From contig DAOOOW010000002.1 in NCBI GenBank assembly GCA_035387885.1, forward strand, positions 7,869 to 71,868: 64,000 bases of DNA, in the 5' to 3' direction. Below the pieces are notes generated by a model that did no database searches, was not told the DNA's origin, and saw only the letters and a program-made list of their open reading frames with translations. A program made the translations under genes and the position numbers. Position 1 is the first letter of the stretch, and each line of letters starts with the position of its first letter. Source of the stretch: a bacterium (GTDB lineage Bacteria; Patescibacteriota; Patescibacteriia; UBA2196). Positions 8,606 to 38,810 of this stretch are shown in pieces.

Positions 8606-9439
8606 ATGCCACTAATCGATTCTCACTGCCATCTAAATTCTAAGGAATTTGAGAATAACTATAAAGAAATAATTGCCGATTGTCTTGAAAAAGAAATCGG
8701 TCTTCTTAACATTGGCGCGGATTTTGAAACCTCCAAACGCGCTGTAGAAATTGCTAGCGAGTATCCCAATAAACCAATTTACGCTTCTATTGGTATGCAC
8801 CCAGAAAGCATTCAGGAAAATTTTGATGCTGAAAAATTTCAAAAATTAATTAACCCCAAAACCGTGGCTGTTGGTGAAATCGGTTTAGAATATTTTTTTG
8901 ATAATAAGCAGGAATTAAAGGAAAAACAACAAGAATTATTTAGACAACAATTAAATTTTGCCATAAAAAATAATTTACCAGTAATTTTACACGCCCGTGG
9001 TTCAAAATTAAATCCCTACGATGTATATGAGGACATGTTAGATATTTTAAAAAAACAGGAACCTGCCCGCCGGAGCGATAATTGGTCGCGATGGAGCGAA
9101 GGCGGGGAGAAGGGTGTCGTCCACTGTTTTAGCGCTAGCCAGGAAATCGCTCAAAAATTTCTTGATCTGGGTTTTTATATTGGCCTAACTGGTTTAATTA
9201 CCTTTAAAAACAAATCAGTTGACAGTTTGCGCCAAACTGTTAAAATGATTCCTTTGGAGCGTCTTTTAGTGGAAACCGACACGCCATATATGACCCCAGA
9301 ACCACACAGGGGTGAGAAAAATTTGCCCCAATACACTGAATTTGTGGCCAGGAAACTAGCCGCAATAAAAGGTGTGAGTTATACAGAAATTTGTAAAATC
9401 ACCACAGAAAATTTTAAAAAATTGTTTTTAAAAAAATAA
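8606..9439 (+). CDS. tatD: TatD-family metal-dependent hydrolase/DNase, with an in-frame repeat insertion
   Basis: PLIDSHCHL start, internal HCFSG-type motif (VVHCFSAS). The inserted peptide PARRSDNWSRWSEGGEK is encoded by the palindromic element at 9062-9106. The upstream part of track ORF 8561.. is a repeat, not coding. Confidence 0.8.
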   Translation: MPLIDSHCHLNSKEFENNYKEIIADCLEKEIGLLNIGADFETSKRAVEIASEYPNKPIYASIGMHPESIQENFDAEKFQKLINPKTVAVGEIGLEYFFDNKQELKEKQQELFRQQLNFAIKNNLPVILHARGSKLNPYDVYEDMLDILKKQEPARRSDNWSRWSEGGEKGVVHCFSASQEIAQKFLDLGFYIGLTGLITFKNKSVDSLRQTVKMIPLERLLVETDTPYMTPEPHRGEKNLPQYTEFVARKLAAIKGVSYTEICKITTENFKKLFLKK

Positions 9440-9443
9440 TTTG

Positions 9444-9471
9444 TTCGCTCCAGTCTCCTGACTGGAGCGGC
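9444..9471 (+). repeat. CGCTCCAGTC-TCCT-GACTGGAGCG hairpin element downstream of tatD
   Basis: Perfect 10-bp stem with no T-run, so it is a repeat rather than a classic terminator. Variants occur at 15927-15951, 25327-25421 and in the 70-bp repeat. Confidence 0.5.
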
Positions 9472-11590: not shown

Positions 11591-11621
11591 TAAATTTATA
11601 ACTTATAGATGGAGGTAGGTA

Positions 11622-12098
11622 ATGACTGGACAAAATATTCGACTGGCTGTGATTTTTTTGGTTATTACAGAAGATTCCCATGGTAAAAAAATAATTGCCA
11701 TTGGTAAAAAAAGATCAAACTCGCCCAAATTTATGGCTGGTTGTTGGCATATTCCTGGTGGCACTAGTTGTTTAAGTGATTATCTTAATTTAAAATCTTT
11801 TGCCGAGCTTATTCAAAGAATTGCCGAACGAGAAGCTAAAGAAGAATTGGGTGTTGAAGTTGATTTTAAAAAAATTCTCCATTCACAGGCAATTATAAAG
11901 CCAGATAAAGGCGAATTTTTGCAAATGGTCTACGTGCTTTGTCGTCCGGTAGATAATTCACAAATAAATTTAAAGCACGGCAGCGATTTAGAAGATGCTA
12001 AATGGGTGCCTTTTAATAAAGTTTTAGAATATTTGGATGTCAAAGCCATTGAGCATCTGCCTGATGGTATCAAATTATTTATTACTTCTTTTGTTTAA
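11622..12098 (+). CDS. NUDIX hydrolase
   Basis: NUDIX box ...AELIQRIAEREAKEELGV (REUxEExGU). Confidence 0.65.
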   Translation: MTGQNIRLAVIFLVITEDSHGKKIIAIGKKRSNSPKFMAGCWHIPGGTSCLSDYLNLKSFAELIQRIAEREAKEELGVEVDFKKILHSQAIIKPDKGEFLQMVYVLCRPVDNSQINLKHGSDLEDAKWVPFNKVLEYLDVKAIEHLPDGIKLFITSFV

Positions 12099-19906: not shown

Positions 19907-19982
19907 GGGCCCTTAGCTCATTTGGTAGAGCACCTGCTTTGCAAGCAGGGGGTGACCGGTTCGAGCCCGGTAGGGTCCACCA
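19907..19982 (+). tRNA. tRNA-Ala (anticodon TGC), CCA encoded
   Basis: G3:U70 pair in the acceptor GGGCCCT/AGGGTCC, anticodon loop TTTGCAA, 3' CCA. Confidence 0.88.
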
Positions 19983-20023: not shown

Positions 20024-20099
20024 CCTGCTTTGTATGCAGTGGGGGTTAAAAAGACACCCAAGTGTCTTTTTAACGGTTCGAGTCCAGTAGGGTCCACCA
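20024..20099 (+). pseudogene. 3' fragment of a tRNA-Ala-like gene (anticodon arm to CCA end) carrying an inserted hairpin; no 5' half
   Basis: CCTGCTTTGTATGCAG anticodon-arm relic, inserted AAAAAGACACCCAAGTGTCTTTTT hairpin, then GGTTCGAGTCCAGTAGGGTCCACCA matching the Ala T-arm/acceptor/CCA. No matching 5' acceptor strand upstream. Confidence 0.6.
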
Positions 20100-31130: not shown

Positions 31131-31628
31131 TTACATGTCTTTATAAGTTTCCATAACATTTTCTATCACATCTAATTGTACATTGGCTTGCTCAAATAAC
31201 TCTCTAGTTAGTTTAGCACCATGATAATGTTTCAAACAGACAACTCTTTTGATACCGACTGCCACTAACATACGAGCACAAACATAACATGGTTCCATTT
31301 TTACATAGATAGTGCAACCATCTAAGGAAATTCCATTTTTGGCAGCTTGGCAAATGGCATTTTGTTCTGCATGAATTGTACGTACGCAATGTTTAGAAAC
31401 TGTGCCGTCATCATTAATCACTTCATGAATGATATGACCTTCATCATCGCAGTGAGCTGTGCCTGGTGGTGAACCAACATAGCCCGTGGCGACGATTCTC
31501 TTATCACGTACAACTACACAGCCGGATCTTCCCCGATCGCAAGTACCTCGTTCACCGATTAATGCGATTAAATTCATAAAATATTCATCCCAACTGGGGC
31601 GAACATGATTTGTTTGTTCTTCTGACAT
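31131..31628 (-). CDS. comEB: dCMP deaminase (ComEB family)
   Basis: Zinc-binding HAEQNAI and PCYVC motifs. Confidence 0.88.
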   Translation of the reverse strand: MSEEQTNHVRPSWDEYFMNLIALIGERGTCDRGRSGCVVVRDKRIVATGYVGSPPGTAHCDDEGHIIHEVINDDGTVSKHCVRTIHAEQNAICQAAKNGISLDGCTIYVKMEPCYVCARMLVAVGIKRVVCLKHYHGAKLTRELFEQANVQLDVIENVMETYKDM

Positions 31629-31753
31629 AAGTTTGAAATTTATTTTTTATAATTATATTTTATCTTATATATGCTCAGTGTCAATTTTTTGTCAAACCAA
31701 AAACCCGCTTTTTTAAAAAGCGAGTTTTAAAATTATATTAAATAATTTTTCAT

Positions 31754-31825
31754 TTGCCGGGGGGCAGAATCGGACTGCCAACGCCAAGATTTTCAGTCTT
31801 GCGCTCTACCATTGAGCTACCCCGG
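31754..31825 (-). tRNA. tRNA-Phe (anticodon GAA)
   Basis: Reverse complement reads GCCGGGGTAGCTCAATGGTAGAGCGCAAGACTGAAAATCTTGG...TCCGATTCTGCCCCCCGGCA. Confidence 0.85.
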
Positions 31826-31836
31826 CAAAAAATAAA

Positions 31837-31875
31837 TGGGCATAGATGGATTTGAACCATCGACATCTACCTTAT
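31837..31875 (-). pseudogene. 3' half (anticodon loop to acceptor) of a variant tRNA-Ile(TAT) copy
   Basis: Reverse complement TATAAGGTAGATGTCGATGGTTCAAATCCATCTATGCCC. Its acceptor TATGCCC pairs with the GGGCATA of fragment 32035..32072, not with the intact gene. Confidence 0.6.
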
Positions 31876-31924
31876 ACTATGTATAATTACTGCGTTCGCA
31901 AAAAATGCAAATGCCAAGGCAATG

Positions 31925-31997
31925 GTGGGCACGGATGGATTTGAACCATCGACATCCACCTTATAAGGGTGGCGCTCTAACCGCTGAGCTACGTGCC
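31925..31997 (-). tRNA. tRNA-Ile (anticodon TAT, i.e. UAU)
   Basis: Reverse complement GGGCACGTAGCTCAGCGGTTAGAGCGCCACCCTTATAAGGTGGATGTCGATGGTTCAAATCCATCCGTGCCCA. Anticodon arm is a perfect palindrome with loop CTTATAA. Confidence 0.8.
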
Positions 31998-32034
31998 CAG
32001 TGGATTTAAGCATTTGCCTTTTTGCTCTCTTGTA

Positions 32035-32072
32035 ATTATAAGGGTGGCGCTCTAACCGCTGAGCTATATGCC
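32035..32072 (-). pseudogene. 5' half (acceptor to anticodon loop) of a variant tRNA-Ile(TAT) copy
   Basis: Reverse complement GGGCATATAGCTCAGCGGTTAGAGCGCCACCCTTATAA. Flanked on both sides by GTAATTATAA (32031-32040 and 32073-32082). Confidence 0.6.
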
Positions 32073-32227
32073 CGTAATTATAAAATACATAATAAATATT
32101 AGCAAGACTTTAGCCCGCTTGTCAAAGTTTTAAAATTATAGTAGAATATACTTATTGATAATTTTTAAACTTTTTACATTTTAAATCTTTTGGGATTTGT
32201 AATTTGTAATTTGTAATTTTAAAAAAT

Positions 32228-32494
32228 ATGCCTCAACAAAAAAATGCTGAAAAATCATTAAGACAGATTAAAAAAAGAACTGCTAAAAACGATAAAATTC
32301 GCAATGGTTTAGATATTTTGACTCGTCAACTTAAAAAAGCTATGGTTCTTAAAGACGCCCCTAAATCTCAAGAATTAGTCAAAAAATTAACCAAAGCTTG
32401 GGATAAAGCCGCTCAAAAAAAAGTTTTAAAGAAAAACACCGCGGCTAGAAAAAAATCCAGAATAATGAAGAAAGTAAATACTTTGAGTAAATAA
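32228..32494 (+). CDS. rpsT: Ribosomal protein S20
   Basis: Basic 88-aa protein with the S20 N-terminal [13 protein letters not shown] and the helical C-terminus. Confidence 0.85.
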
Positions 32495-32501
32495 TATTTT
32501 T

Positions 32502-35674: not shown

Positions 35675-35821
35675 TAACCATTTGTGGAGAGGTTTTCTTT
35701 ACGCCATCGTGTGGGCCTCCTATTTTTTTTCTAAAACAAACTAGTTATTTTATTAATTTTTATTTTTTTTAAAATTACTTCTAATTATTTCACTTTTTTT
35801 AAAAAATGTCAAATAAAAAAA

Positions 35822-36892: not shown

Positions 36893-38332
36893 ATGATTAA
36901 AGAATTACATCAAAAACTTATTAATAAAGAAATATCCGCAGTGGAACTCACTCGCGATTATTTAGCGCGCGCAGAAGCCAAAAACTCTGAACTTAATGCT
37001 TTTATCACAATAGTTAGTGATTCTGCTTTAAGACAAGCAGTGGCAGTTGATAGAAAAATAAAAAATAATGAAGAAATTTCGTTAATTGCTGGCCTGCCTT
37101 GTAGTATTAAAGATGTCATTATGACAGAGGGTATTAGGACTACAGCTGCATCTAAAATTTTAGAAAATTATATTGCTTCTTATGACGCCACGTCTGTTGG
37201 CAAAATAAAAAATGCTAAGGCTGTAATTTTGGGTAAAAATAATTGCGATGAATTTGCCATGGGCGGCTCTAATGAAAATTCTGGTTTTGGTCCAGTTAAA
37301 AATCCACTTGATTTAGAACGCGTGCCAGGTGGATCTTCTGGTGGCTCTGCAGTAAGTGTGGCTGCGGATTTAGCAGTTTATGCTCTAGGCACAGATACTG
37401 GTGGTTCAGTGCGCCAACCAGCGGCTTTTTGTGGAGTGGTTGGTCTGAAACCAACTTATGGGGCAGTTTCACGTCATGGTTTAATTGCTATGGCTTCATC
37501 ATTAGACCAAATTGGACCATTAACAAAAAATATTGAAGACGCCAAAATTATTTTTGATATAATTAAAGGCAAAGATAAATTTGACTCAACGAGTCAAGAA
37601 TTTCCAATTTCCAACCAGCCTACCGGACGGACAGGTTTCCAATTTCCAATAAATTTTAAAAAATTAAAAATCGGCATTCCTAAAGAATATTTTGTTAAAG
37701 GCATTGACACTGAAGTGGAATCCGCGGTGCGTGAAGTAATAAAAAAAGCAGAAGCATTGGGCGCGGAAATTGTGGAAGTTAGTTTGCCATATACTGAATA
37801 TGCGCTGGCTGTTTATTATATTATCCAACCTGCAGAAGCCAGCGCCAATTTAGCGCGCTTTGATGGCATTCGTTATGGCAAGCGAGCTGAGGCGACTGAA
37901 AATTTAATTGAAGTTTATAAAAAAACTCGCGCGGAATTTTTAGGTGAAGAAGTTAAAAGAAGAATAATGCTCGGCACTTACACTTTATCGGCTGGATATT
38001 TTGACGCTTATTATAAAAAAGCCAACGCAGTTAGAAAATTAATTAAGCAAGATTTTACTAATGTGTTTGAAAGCGTTGATTTATTAATTACTCCAACCAC
38101 ACCTACCTCTGCTTTTAAATTAGGTGAAAAAACTAGCGATCCATTAACAATGTATTTGGAAGATATTTTTACAGTACCGATTAATTTAGCTGGTTTACCG
38201 GCCATGTCCATGCCAGCCGGCCAAACAAAATCCGGTTTGCCCATTGGGGTACAATTAATTGCCCCATGGTTTGGGGAAGATGTTTTGTTTGAGGTGGGGG
38301 AGGAGTTAGAAAGAGTAATCCGTAATATGTAA
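36893..38332 (+). CDS. gatA: Glutamyl-tRNA(Gln)/Asp-tRNA(Asn) amidotransferase subunit A
   Basis: Amidase signature GGSSGGSAVSVAADLAVYALGTDTGGSVRQPAAFCGVVGLKPTYG. Confidence 0.92.
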   Translation: MIKELHQKLINKEISAVELTRDYLARAEAKNSELNAFITIVSDSALRQAVAVDRKIKNNEEISLIAGLPCSIKDVIMTEGIRTTAASKILENYIASYDATSVGKIKNAKAVILGKNNCDEFAMGGSNENSGFGPVKNPLDLERVPGGSSGGSAVSVAADLAVYALGTDTGGSVRQPAAFCGVVGLKPTYGAVSRHGLIAMASSLDQIGPLTKNIEDAKIIFDIIKGKDKFDSTSQEFPISNQPTGRTGFQFPINFKKLKIGIPKEYFVKGIDTEVESAVREVIKKAEALGAEIVEVSLPYTEYALAVYYIIQPAEASANLARFDGIRYGKRAEATENLIEVYKKTRAEFLGEEVKRRIMLGTYTLSAGYFDAYYKKANAVRKLIKQDFTNVFESVDLLITPTTPTSAFKLGEKTSDPLTMYLEDIFTVPINLAGLPAMSMPAGQTKSGLPIGVQLIAPWFGEDVLFEVGEELERVIRNM

Positions 38333-38468
38333 TCCGTAATCTGTAAAAGGAATAAATTGATTTAAAAATTTTATTACCAATTACTAATTACCAATTACAA
38401 ATTACTTTTTGTTGTTTTATTGCCAAATTTTATATTTATGATAGAATAATTCTAGTTTTTTATTGGGC

Positions 38469-38565
38469 GGAGCGGTAGTTCAGTTGGTTAGAACGCTGCC
38501 CTGTCATGGCATGAGGGTTGAAATCTGCCCCAAGGCAGATTTCAACGGTTCAAGTCCCGTCGTAA
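38469..38565 (+). pseudogene. Variant tRNA-Asp-like 5' portion (acceptor 5' strand to T-arm) with a 31-nt hairpin insertion in the variable region; lacks a 3' acceptor strand
   Basis: Identical to tRNA-Asp through the anticodon loop (CTGTCA), then TGGCATGAGGGTTGAAATCTGCCCCAAGGCAGATTTCA and ACGGTTCAAGTCCC. It is followed by GTCGTAAT, not by CCGCTCC. Confidence 0.55.
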
Positions 38566-38608
38566 TATTTTATTTTATTTTTACATTTTAATAAATGGTT
38601 CCCCAAAC

Positions 38609-38682
38609 GGAGCGGTAGTTCAGTTGGTTAGAACGCTGCCCTGTCACGGCAGAGGTCACGGGTTCGAGTCCCGTCCGCTCCG
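38609..38682 (+). tRNA. tRNA-Asp (anticodon GTC)
   Basis: GGAGCGGTAGTTCAGTTGGTTAGAACGCTGCCCTGTCACGGCAGAGGTCACGGGTTCGAGTCCCGTCCGCTCCG. Clean cloverleaf, no CCA. Confidence 0.85.
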
Positions 38683-38722
38683 TTTGGCGAATAATAAAAG
38701 TAAGATGAAATATTATAAAAAA

Positions 38723-38810
38723 CTGTCATGGCATGAGGGTTGAAATCTGCCCCAAGGCAGATTTCAACGGTTCAAGTCCCTGCCTACCGGCAGGCAGACC
38801 GTCCGCTCCG
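38723..38810 (+). pseudogene. Variant tRNA-Asp-like 3' portion (anticodon loop to 3' acceptor end) duplicating 58 nt of 38501..38558 and carrying an 18-nt palindrome in the T-loop
   Basis: CTGTCATGG...GGTTCAAGTCCC is identical to the upstream pseudo-copy. It then continues with TGCCTACCGGCAGGCAGA and CCGTCCGCTCCG (the correct Asp 3' end). Confidence 0.55.

Follow-up and report, generated by a model that had tools for sequence, protein, structure and literature searches.

tRNA genes are favourite landing sites of mobile DNA, and the known elements either rebuild the gene that they enter or, in the case of a few phages, bring a spare tRNA. Islands and prophages that target tRNA genes bring along the 3' portion of the tRNA; the target is thereby regenerated and only a displaced 3' fragment is left. 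The anticodon loop is a palindromic site that is a classical target of tyrosine integrases. In the archaea Nanoarchaeum and Caldivirga, the halves of split tRNAs, which are the only copy, are joined by an endonuclease specific for the bulge-helix-bulge (BHB) motif and a ligase. Elements resembling miniature inverted-repeat transposable elements (MITEs), such as Correia and ERIC, are non-coding sequences of about 150 bp with long inverted-repeat arms, which are transcribed as a hairpin and flanked by a short AT-rich target duplication. Experimental precedent is provided by tRNA-dependent lysogeny of actinobacteriophages, which insert into a host tRNA gene, commonly in the region of the anticodon loop and through a common core of 8-10 bp, and do not rebuild the tRNA (Guerrero-Bustamante & Hatfull 2024, PMC10865867). 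Group I introns are common in the anticodon loops of tRNA genes of Patescibacteria (Nakagawa et al. 2026, PMC13011429). Here, we analyzed a tRNA-Ile(UAU) locus in a 64 kb stretch of patescibacterial DNA (contig DAOOOW010000002.1), which as a whole is called the window. At this locus a complete inner tRNA-Ile(UAU) gene, I, is separated by two arms, s1 and s2, from the two halves of a resident tRNA-Ile(UAU) gene, V. We consider it probable (roughly 0.6) that s1, I and s2 are a promoterless tRNA replacement cassette of ~158 bp that was inserted at the DNA level into the anticodon loop of V, and that they do not constitute an intron.

On the minus strand the order is V5, s1, I, s2, V3 and tRNA-Phe. 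The 5' half of the resident gene, V5 (positions 1-38 of the tRNA; 32036..32073; GGGCATATAGCTCAGCGGTTAGAGCGCCACCCTTATAA), ends in the anticodon loop with CTTATAA. It is followed by the 37-nt left arm s1 (31999..32035; TTACAAGAGAGCAAAAAGGCAAATGCTTAAATCCACT), by the intact gene I (31926..31998), which is recognized by ARAGORN and scores 77.4 bits with Rfam RF00005, and by the 49-nt right arm s2 (31877..31925; CCATTGCC...TTTTTTGCGAACGCAGTAATTATACATAG), with which s1 pairs. A CCA is encoded directly after I (31925-31923). The 3' half, V3 (positions 34-73; 31837..31876; TATAAGGTAGATGTCGATGGTTCAAATCCATCTATGCCCA), is followed after 9 nt by a tRNA-Phe(GAA) gene (31754..31827), and this Ile-Phe pairing is kept in all relatives. 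The similarity of the two halves to the intact gene (95% over 38 nt for V5, 93% over 40 nt for V3) is far above chance. The acceptor strands of V5 and V3 (GGGCATA/TATGCCC) pair mutually and are distinct from those of I (GGGCACG/CGTGCCC). Each of the two junctions (32040-32036 and 31876-31872) has the pentanucleotide TATAA, which corresponds to anticodon positions 34-38, the anticodon and two further bases. The order of halves, spacers and intact gene described in the initial annotation is borne out by the sequence, ARAGORN and Rfam, and the compensating acceptor changes and the duplication of TTATA(A) at the junctions, which it also reported, were confirmed. A detail absent from it is the change G42A in V3, which leaves the anticodon stem of the outer gene with a C28·A42 mismatch.

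The direct repeat on both sides of V5 (TTATAATTAC) and the likeness of the insert ends in inverted orientation (GTAATTATA at 31890-31882), both noted before, are real. In most lineages, including those of the relatives L116, L085, L004 and L087, TTATAATTAC (32074-32083 in the window) abuts the 5' end of the resident tRNA-Ile gene, and in the window it reappears at the V5/s1 junction. It overlaps a -10-like TATAAT that is too near the tRNA for a normal leader, and it may serve as a promoter, a processing signal or a recombination site.

The evidence that carries the insertion comes from relatives in which the site is empty. The GatA protein of L116 (GCA_964498445.1) is 99% identical at the amino acid level to that of the window, and the block formed by the S20 gene, the spacer and the V5 flank shares 98.6% nucleotide identity between the two. 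The orthologous site of L116 contains a single uninterrupted gene (...TTTTATAATTAC-GGGCATATAGCTCAGCGGTTAGAGCGCCACCCTTATAAGGTGGATGTCGATGGTTCAAATCCATCTATGCCCA; Rfam 78 bits), which equals V5 and V3 joined exactly via a single TTATAA. In L116, L085 and L086 the uninterrupted gene starts with 38 nt that match V5 without a difference, and V3 shows 97.7% identity to V of L116. An uninterrupted V at the orthologous site is also present in L085 (S20 97%), L086 (S20 81%) and L004/L092, and the genes of all these relatives score 75.5-78 bits with Rfam. The arms s1 and s2 are without counterpart at the empty loci. Contigs from S20-based look-ups (P0003, P0006) end before the tRNA and are not part of the comparison. 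For reference, the empty junction reads CACCCTTATAAGGT[G/A]GATG and the predicted junction of an excised circle GTAATTATACATAGTATAATTAC / GCAGTAATTATACATAGTATAATTACAAGAGAGC, and a ligated V would be expected to read GGGCATA...CTTATAAGGTAG...TATGCCC, with CACCCTTATAAGGTAGATG as its anticodon-region string. Because a near-identical relative lacks the cassette, we favour the replacement of a twin tRNA gene over an intron or an assembly error. The empty sites support the proposal of the initial annotation that a segment of ~158 bp carrying a tRNA was inserted into the anticodon loop of a paralogue with a short target duplication, and the comparison with related genomes that it had suggested retrieved the uninterrupted gene in L116, L085, L086 and L004/L092.

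It had also named a scenario that would contradict an insertion, in which three tandem tRNA-Ile genes were trimmed by separate deletions. In such a local product of duplication and deletion the two halves could also have been duplicated; tRNA fragments beside intact genes are indeed frequent in related genomes, and the tRNA-Asp locus of the window (see below) can be interpreted as a set of tandem units from which an internal part was deleted. The tandem scenario is excluded because the empty sites carry one uninterrupted V: all five Kuenenbacteria-like lineages with such a gene have V5 and V3 joined through one TTATAA, s1 and s2 are unmatched at those loci, and two independent deletions that stop at the same loop bases are implausible. 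A duplication or deletion origin in general is very improbable.

The empty sites also bear on the acceptor stems. Since V at these sites already has GGGCATA/TATGCCC, the compensating changes are uninformative on the function of the split gene; judged from this comparison, they are the resident gene's own stem and no proof that the split gene still works. The acceptor of I, GGGCACG/CGTGCCC, is that of the single resident gene in the sister lineage L087/L088, and the inner tRNA therefore originated within the clade. The single resident gene of L090 has yet another acceptor, GGGCATG/CATGCCT.

The host belongs to the Patescibacteria, near Candidatus Kuenenbacteria, and has a GC content of about 33%. 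Its GatA is 73-76% identical to those of L004, L005, L086 and L087, and the locus is surrounded by genes with ordinary housekeeping functions. The organism is present in the samples JGI 3300010355, SRR4244858 and ERR7570002. The sequence comes from a metagenome-assembled genome, and the two tRNA variants share 30-nt stretches at which short-read unitigs break, both of which would favour an artefact assembled from mixed strains. Two k-mer assemblies from further samples, L002 and L003, end exactly within the part of V5 that is repeated in I, and in L085 a unitig, obtained from a sample in which the gene is uninterrupted, crosses the site without a break. Against an artefact, the identical structure is present in a JGI contig (L001), and the cassette architecture is found, with its own substitutions, in a second species in two assemblies, L005 (NCBI) and L084 (ENA). 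Moreover, the V5/s1 and s2/V3 junctions share no k-mer able to mislead a de Bruijn graph, and the helix formed by the arms covaries between both species. Such an artefact is hardly credible, and by the contigs compared here the locus is not one.

The two arms are complementary almost end to end, giving a helix of about 30 bp with the tRNA at its tip. Starting at the left junction, a helix of 9 bp, alpha, is followed by an internal loop of 6/7 nt and by a helix of 17-20 bp, beta. The 5' strand of alpha (32032..32040; TATAATTAC) begins with the five bases of the left TATAA (32040-32036), and its 3' strand (31882..31890; GTAATTATA) is followed by CATAG and the right TATAA (31876-31872); the strands of beta are located at 32009..32025 (GCAAAAAGGCAAATGCT) and 31898..31915 (GGCATTTGCATTTTTTGC), all on the minus strand. 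The energy of the arm duplex is -27.6 kcal/mol for the window and -26.2 kcal/mol for L005 (z-scores of -5.3 to -6.0), and none of the shuffled sequences (0/1000 and 0/500) reached these values. Complementarity between leader and trailer is absent at the six other tRNA genes of the window and at the resident Ile genes of L116, L004 and L087. The resident Ile gene of L086 gave a z-score of -3.1, with the leader pairing with the adjoining tRNA-Phe sequence, and this modelled duplex is regarded as spurious. Comparing the arm helix by hand between the window and L005 revealed two compensatory changes from C-G to T-A, which lie in beta, two one-sided changes and no disruptive ones; substitutions and indels pile up in the loops and junctions of the fold. 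The entire 243 nt are predicted to fold into an outer cloverleaf whose anticodon arm is prolonged by the arm helix, with the inner cloverleaf as a cap (z-score of -5.0; -6.0 for L005). The end of s2 resembles the leader of tRNA-Phe in L116 (TTTGCATTTTT...TATA.ATAG), a similarity too weak to serve as evidence.

The inner gene is intact in both lineages, with 77 bits each, and its T-stem differs between them by a compensatory pair (GATGG/CCATC versus GGTGG/CCACC), which indicates function. The state of the outer gene is different. In L005, V5 contains a GC-rich hairpin of 33 nt in the D loop and its D stem is down to two pairs, and V3 has a C27·A43 mismatch, next to the C28·A42 mismatch of the window. 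Going by these changes, the outer gene is decaying, with the copy of L005 looking older and the insertion in the window recent.

The fold of outer cloverleaf, arm helix and inner cloverleaf, present in both lineages, is also what would be expected of an intron of 158-163 nt that is spliced from the RNA, with V re-ligated, V and I produced from one nested gene, and the arm helix joining the splice sites. The covariation of the helix, a patchy distribution like that of mobile introns, and the richness of Patescibacteria in tRNA group I introns (PMC13011429) are in line with this possibility. One register (33/34), in which exon 1 ends in ...CCCU and the insert in ...CAUAG, has a U at -1 and a G at the end of the insert, as is seen in group I introns; with six registers permitted by the TATAA duplication, this is weak evidence. 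On the other side, no group I model or ribozyme in Rfam matched the region 31600-32300 even at E-values up to 10, Intron_gpI had no match at its gathering threshold across the window, and the about 86 nt that are not tRNA are too little for a group I core. Neither does the fold have the geometry of a BHB motif: in the minimum free energy and centroid folds a 3-nt bulge on the 5' side is followed by a 9-bp helix and 10 unpaired nt on the 3' side. Bacteria are, to our knowledge, not known to have a splicing endonuclease, and no domain of a splicing endonuclease (EndA) or RtcB-type ligase was found in the about 60 open reading frames (ORFs) of the window. The exons are not kept, as seen from the 33-nt insertion and broken D stem of V5 in L005 and from the new anticodon-stem mismatches of both V3 copies, and a spliced V would be redundant with I. 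An intron is improbable, mainly because the outer gene decays, and equally improbable is the bolder reading that the insert is a spliceable intron of a new kind, with two tRNAs made from a single nested gene. The initial annotation had listed a mini-cassette, the scar of a recombinase and a split or permuted tRNA as candidate mechanisms; the first two are still tenable, and the last is not supported, as there is no BHB motif and the halves decay. An intron, a split tRNA and an origin by tandem deletion are all unlikely.

We therefore return to the replacement cassette and to how it would be expressed. A promoter-like site, TTGACA-18-TAATAT, is present upstream of V5 (32096..32125, minus strand; a consensus match only), and no promoter-like site was found inside the insert on the tRNA strand. 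Because the insert has no such site and a good one precedes V5, I would be transcribed from the promoter of V together with tRNA-Phe, and V5, I, V3 and tRNA-Phe probably form one transcript from the resident promoter. The sequences suggest that V was inactivated and that the decoding of AUA was taken over by I.

In the mechanism that we propose, the cassette would have entered by a short-core crossover in the anticodon loop, either as a one-off insertion or as the miniaturised, trans-mobilised derivative of an element that destroys a host tRNA gene and brings a tRNA of its own. The insertion would disable the resident V, and I would take over both AUA decoding and the promoter of V, being cotranscribed with tRNA-Phe. 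The arm helix would shut the inner pre-tRNA off from the tRNA-like outer halves, and the pre-tRNA could be released by RNase III-type cleavage followed by RNase P and 3' trimming. As the cell would depend on I, the cassette would be hard to lose except by precise excision. Spread between lineages could occur by the action of a recombinase or by homologous recombination through the conserved tRNA sequences on each side.

Filled sites are limited to two lineages, those of the window and of L005 (L084 comes from the L005 organism). Both lineages have exactly the same junctions, CCCTTATAA/TTAC and TAG/TATAAGG, with the slash marking the junction. Kinship, deduced from pairwise identities of GatA, the CCA-adding enzyme, GatC and S20, is that of a star-like radiation in which the window groups with the empty L085/L116 and with L086, and L005 is not the window's sister. 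The pattern of filled and empty sites over these relatives implies that the cassette was gained at least two times or precisely lost at least three times. Between the window and L005 the arms share 82% (s1) and 86% (s2) identity, including 29 identical bases of s2 (ATTTTTTGCGAACGCAGTAATTATA plus flanking T's), and the adjacent intergenic DNA shows 52-54%, which is the baseline of shuffled sequences. With arms so much more alike than intergenic DNA, the cassette is constrained or younger than the split of the hosts. In the lineage of the window, the insertion, or else its reversal in L116, took place very recently.

Searches for further copies gave little. The arms have no second copy in the window (up to 3 mismatches) and none in the other 1.3 Mb of fetched loci except L005/L084, and a metagenome-wide scan for any disrupted copy of the anticodon arm GTTAGAGCGYCACCCTTATAAH returned only L084. 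No further copy of the cassette and no larger parent element was found in phage, plasmid, viral and metagenome collections, and matches in the BLAST searches of phages and plasmids were confined to the tRNA part. Nothing relevant was retrieved from viral contigs, whether the scan was for the disrupted arm or the s2 motif, for the junction predicted for a circle, for the tRNA of the cassette together with its CCA, for the resident tRNA, or for the hairpin/T-arm motif: 18 matches to TTTYAACGGTTCRAGTCC belong to an unrelated phage tRNA-like repeat, and 2 matches to the palindrome are AT-rich and were put down to chance. In IMG/VR, contigs L094-L111 have a conserved tRNA-like repeat, ctggggtcagggttttgttg...TTTCAACGGTTCGAGTCCgagtcaggt, which follows tRNA genes in many viral contigs; it matched the T-arm pattern by chance and is unrelated to the window.

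Several of these results weigh against a dedicated replacement cassette. Pfam detected no recombinase or transposase among the ORFs of the window, the arms are single-copy there and without match in the viral, phage and plasmid collections, a core of 5 bp is short for a tyrosine recombinase, and the inverted repeats at the ends are not cleanly terminal, with the right one placed 5 nt inside the end. As the metagenome scan gave only L084, the covariation comes from two sequences only, and because no second arm copy was found, the mobility of a dedicated element rests on the two filled lineages. In the window, V has a single defect, the C·A mismatch, and L087 has a comparable mismatch in its only resident gene. 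Finally, identity between the window and L116 is a mosaic with blocks of 99.8%, 95% and about 80%: as far as the Asp locus, the blocks that align on either side show 95-99.8%, and downstream of that locus the value is 72-82%. Recombination is therefore frequent, and the identical junctions could reflect one event that was spread by homologous recombination.

These observations suit a relic of a single event. A prophage or an integrative and conjugative element with tRNA-dependent integration, or an illegitimate microhomology join at TTATAA, would have entered V once; all but the now-essential tRNA would then have been deleted, and the filled allele would have spread by homologous recombination through tRNA-Ile and tRNA-Phe. 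The absence of a recombinase from the window, the single copy of the cassette and the mosaic identity fit this scenario, tRNA-dependent lysogeny is a precedent for it, and related genomes often contain small insert remnants that are flanked by duplicated 3' ends of tRNAs. At the left junction, TTATAATTAC repeats exactly the conserved leader before the resident Ile genes, which is compatible with a microhomology join of the TTATAA of the leader to that of the anticodon loop. The homology available on the left side is merely 38 nt, since the 98.6% identity of the S20-V5 flank to the empty L116 requires an imported tract to end inside V5; this is possible but tight. Complementarity over some 30 bp, accompanied by compensatory changes, would not be expected of prophage arms, and a second similar cassette, at the tRNA-Asp locus, argues for a recurring process. 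Both the single entry and the later spread of a trimmed allele seem to us rather doubtful.

It is conceivable, and we put it forward tentatively, that the cassette represents an undescribed class of miniature mobile element, a selfish tRNA replacement cassette made of a promoterless tRNA between hairpin-forming arms. Equally tentative is the suggestion that such an element would be specific for the anticodon loop of the resident gene that encodes the same tRNA, would disable this gene by its insertion and would seize its promoter and function. A search of the literature retrieved no description of a complete tRNA gene nested in the anticodon loop of an isoacceptor gene that is polymorphic among near-identical genomes and present in two distant lineages.

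Other identities were considered and rejected. For a classical integrative element, the shared core is only TATAA, V5 continues with TTAC... and not with a 3' half, and Pfam found no integrase in the window; two successive classical integrations would require a perfectly matched hybrid inner gene. An insertion of the IS200/IS605 type is discarded by the target duplication, TATAA being present on both sides here and once in the empty sites. A temperate phage does not fit an insert of 158 bp that has no ORF and no matching phage or viral contig. The Ile arms lack the RYYYAAC...GTTRRRY boxes of integron cassettes, and the hairpins of the Asp and Ala fragments described below read GTTRAAA...TTTYAAC, with the box order reversed relative to an integron attC site. 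A PsiI-type cut at TTATAA with capture of a fragment is not compatible with a right junction that reads GTATAA instead of TTATAA. A derivative of a MITE or DDE transposon is not among the rejected identities, and the observations on it are mixed: TATAA is duplicated over 5 bp and the arms are complementary over about 30 bp, but the left repeat contains the duplicated target bases and the right repeat ends 5 nt inside the insert.

The initial annotation had stated that the same architecture recurs at the tRNA-Asp locus (38469..38810, plus strand). This locus, which is partly analogous to the Ile locus, consists of a 5' part, A (38469-38500), a 58-nt repeat, R1 (38501-38558), an arm, s1' (38559-38608), the intact tRNA-Asp gene (38609-38682), a second arm, s2' (38683-38722), the second repeat, R2 (38723-38780), and a tail, E, with the 3' acceptor strand (38781-38810). 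The intact gene, the complementary arms (-23.4 kcal/mol, z-score of about -5) and flanking Asp-like pieces that start in the anticodon loop agree with this statement. What differs is that the duplication is a perfect 58-nt direct repeat, which holds a 13-bp hairpin, GTTGAAATCTGCC-CCAA-GGCAGATTTCAAC, at the position of the variable loop, and that a hairpin-bearing 3' fragment is also present in L116. There (11591-11772), an ordinary intact Asp gene is followed by a 38-nt spacer and the fragment; by comparison, the outer 5' half in the window is the resident 5' half fused at the anticodon loop to the hairpin-bearing fragment. Because L116, with its 99% identical GatA, has only the intact gene, the spacer and the fragment, the Asp locus was rearranged recently. 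In the last piece of the locus a second small hairpin, CTGCC-TACC-GGCAG, interrupts the 3' strand of the T-stem.

A related fragment lies 41 nt after the intact tRNA-Ala gene (19907-19982). This Ala-like 3' fragment (20024-20099) starts at the anticodon stem, ends with ...GGGTCCACCA, and has, in the place of the variable loop, a hairpin of 13 bp whose loop is CCAA (GTTAAAAAGACAC-CCAA-GTGTCTTTTTAAC). The Ala and Asp fragments share a module (T38, T43, GRGG, GTTRAAA...TTTYAAC, GGTTCRAGTCC), of which the window contains three copies versus 0.23 expected. The hairpins of these fragments look like intrinsic terminators. At a locus of a relative, L093, an intact tRNA-Phe gene is accompanied by a 3' fragment that begins in the anticodon loop. 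Taken together, the sequences of the Asp, Ala and L093 Phe loci suggest that anticodon loops have repeatedly been sites of recombination in this clade, which supports the earlier suggestion of a mechanism rather than a coincidence, without there being one uniform architecture.

Other peculiarities of tRNA loci were observed in the window and its relatives. In several Patescibacteria, GC-rich inserts of 40-170 nt are located between an intact tRNA gene and a duplicated 3' end (repeats of 16-75 nt): L005 6331-6412, L025 791-914, L045 12728-12919, L068 2851-3007 and L014 13061-13130. In L014, a tRNA-Asp 5' fragment is followed by a GC-rich hairpin, CCTGCCCGCC...GGCGGGG, that resembles the D-loop hairpin of V5 in L005. 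These inserts may constitute a family of small hairpin elements or remnants of integration. Runs of 7-nt tandem repeats (ATTACAA / GTAATCC / ATTACCA types) are present in the window at 32189-32216, 38315-38342 and 38373-38400; they are intergenic, lie beside both the Ile and the Asp locus, and have similar runs at the same places in L004, L087 and L116. L008 contains, on the minus strand (9293-9444), a 152-nt RNA gene with a tRNA-Ala-like acceptor (G3:U70), a T arm and an interruption of about 95 nt. It scores 32 bits with the Rfam tmRNA model (E-value 4e-11), under the gathering score, and may be an unusually small tmRNA; it adjoins an array of odd tRNAs, for which ARAGORN reports Asn-ATT and an undetermined 'ct' anticodon.

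The surroundings of the Ile locus have also been rearranged. The block with S20, tRNA-Ile and tRNA-Phe (31709-32497 in the window, 3362-4525 in L116) is inverted relative to L116, L086, L004/L092 and L005, and L116 has short GC-rich inserts at both borders of the inversion, which the window lacks. An ORF of 108 amino acids is present between the Ile and Phe genes in L116, and probably in L085, and is not found in the window. Between the gene for the CCA-adding enzyme and gatC, L116 (7798-8873, corresponding to about position 35769 of the window), L117 and L118 contain an insertion sequence with an rve (DDE integrase-core) ORF, which the window does not have. This insertion sequence shows that the species has active DDE transposases, and no connection between it and the cassette was detected.

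If the cassette is what we propose, the spare tRNA would be the whole element, and tRNA genes would themselves be invasive, self-perpetuating units and a driver of tRNA gene turnover in minimal genomes with one gene per anticodon. The locus is a natural and polymorphic case of a bacterial tRNA gene that is divided within the anticodon loop. Its halves are predicted to be co-transcribed and able to fold, and it thus bears on the debate over the origin of tRNA introns and split tRNA genes; a new class of element, if real, would show in a living bacterium how tRNA genes come to be split at this loop. On the practical side, tRNA annotation and estimates of completeness for Patescibacteria genomes will be confused by nested and fragmentary genes of this kind.

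How does the locus compare with the systems described at the outset? With Correia and ERIC the cassette shares its size, hairpin-forming arms, a short AT-rich target duplication and the lack of coding capacity, whereas it is single-copy in the data, has a tRNA as cargo and a repeat that is not strictly terminal, and is apparently specific for the loop of one tRNA. As in archaeal split and intron-containing tRNA genes, the division is located in the anticodon loop and complementary sequences adjoin the break; here, however, there is no BHB motif, a full replacement gene lies between the halves, and the halves decay. The group I introns of Patescibacteria have in common with it the phylum, the loop, the patchiness, a long helix by the insertion point and possibly the U(-1) and the terminal G, but the cassette has no catalytic core, is too short, contains a tRNA, and its exons decay. 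Its sublocation in the anticodon loop, the direct repeats at the ends and displaced fragments beside an intact gene, a pattern also seen at the Ala locus of the window and at several loci of relatives, are familiar from tRNA-targeting islands and prophages and from their non-autonomous remnants (cis-mobilizable elements, CIMEs), in contrast to which both halves are displaced here around a whole gene and the size is 10 to 1000 times smaller.

In tRNA-dependent lysogeny, as at the Ile locus, the insertion occurs in a host tRNA through a very short core (5 bp here), the tRNA is not reconstructed, and the function is supplied by the incoming DNA, the cassette tRNA-Ile(UAU) having the same anticodon as V. 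The phage insert differs in that it is a whole temperate phage, has a tyrosine integrase with arm-type sites and carries its tRNA elsewhere in the phage genome, whereas the cassette has 158 bp, is made up of only a tRNA and the two arms that pair with each other, and resides in a patescibacterium, with no integrase found in the 64 kb. By analogy, the logic of the cassette is probably that of tRNA-dependent lysogeny reduced to the tRNA alone, in that it would kill the resident gene and supply the same function.

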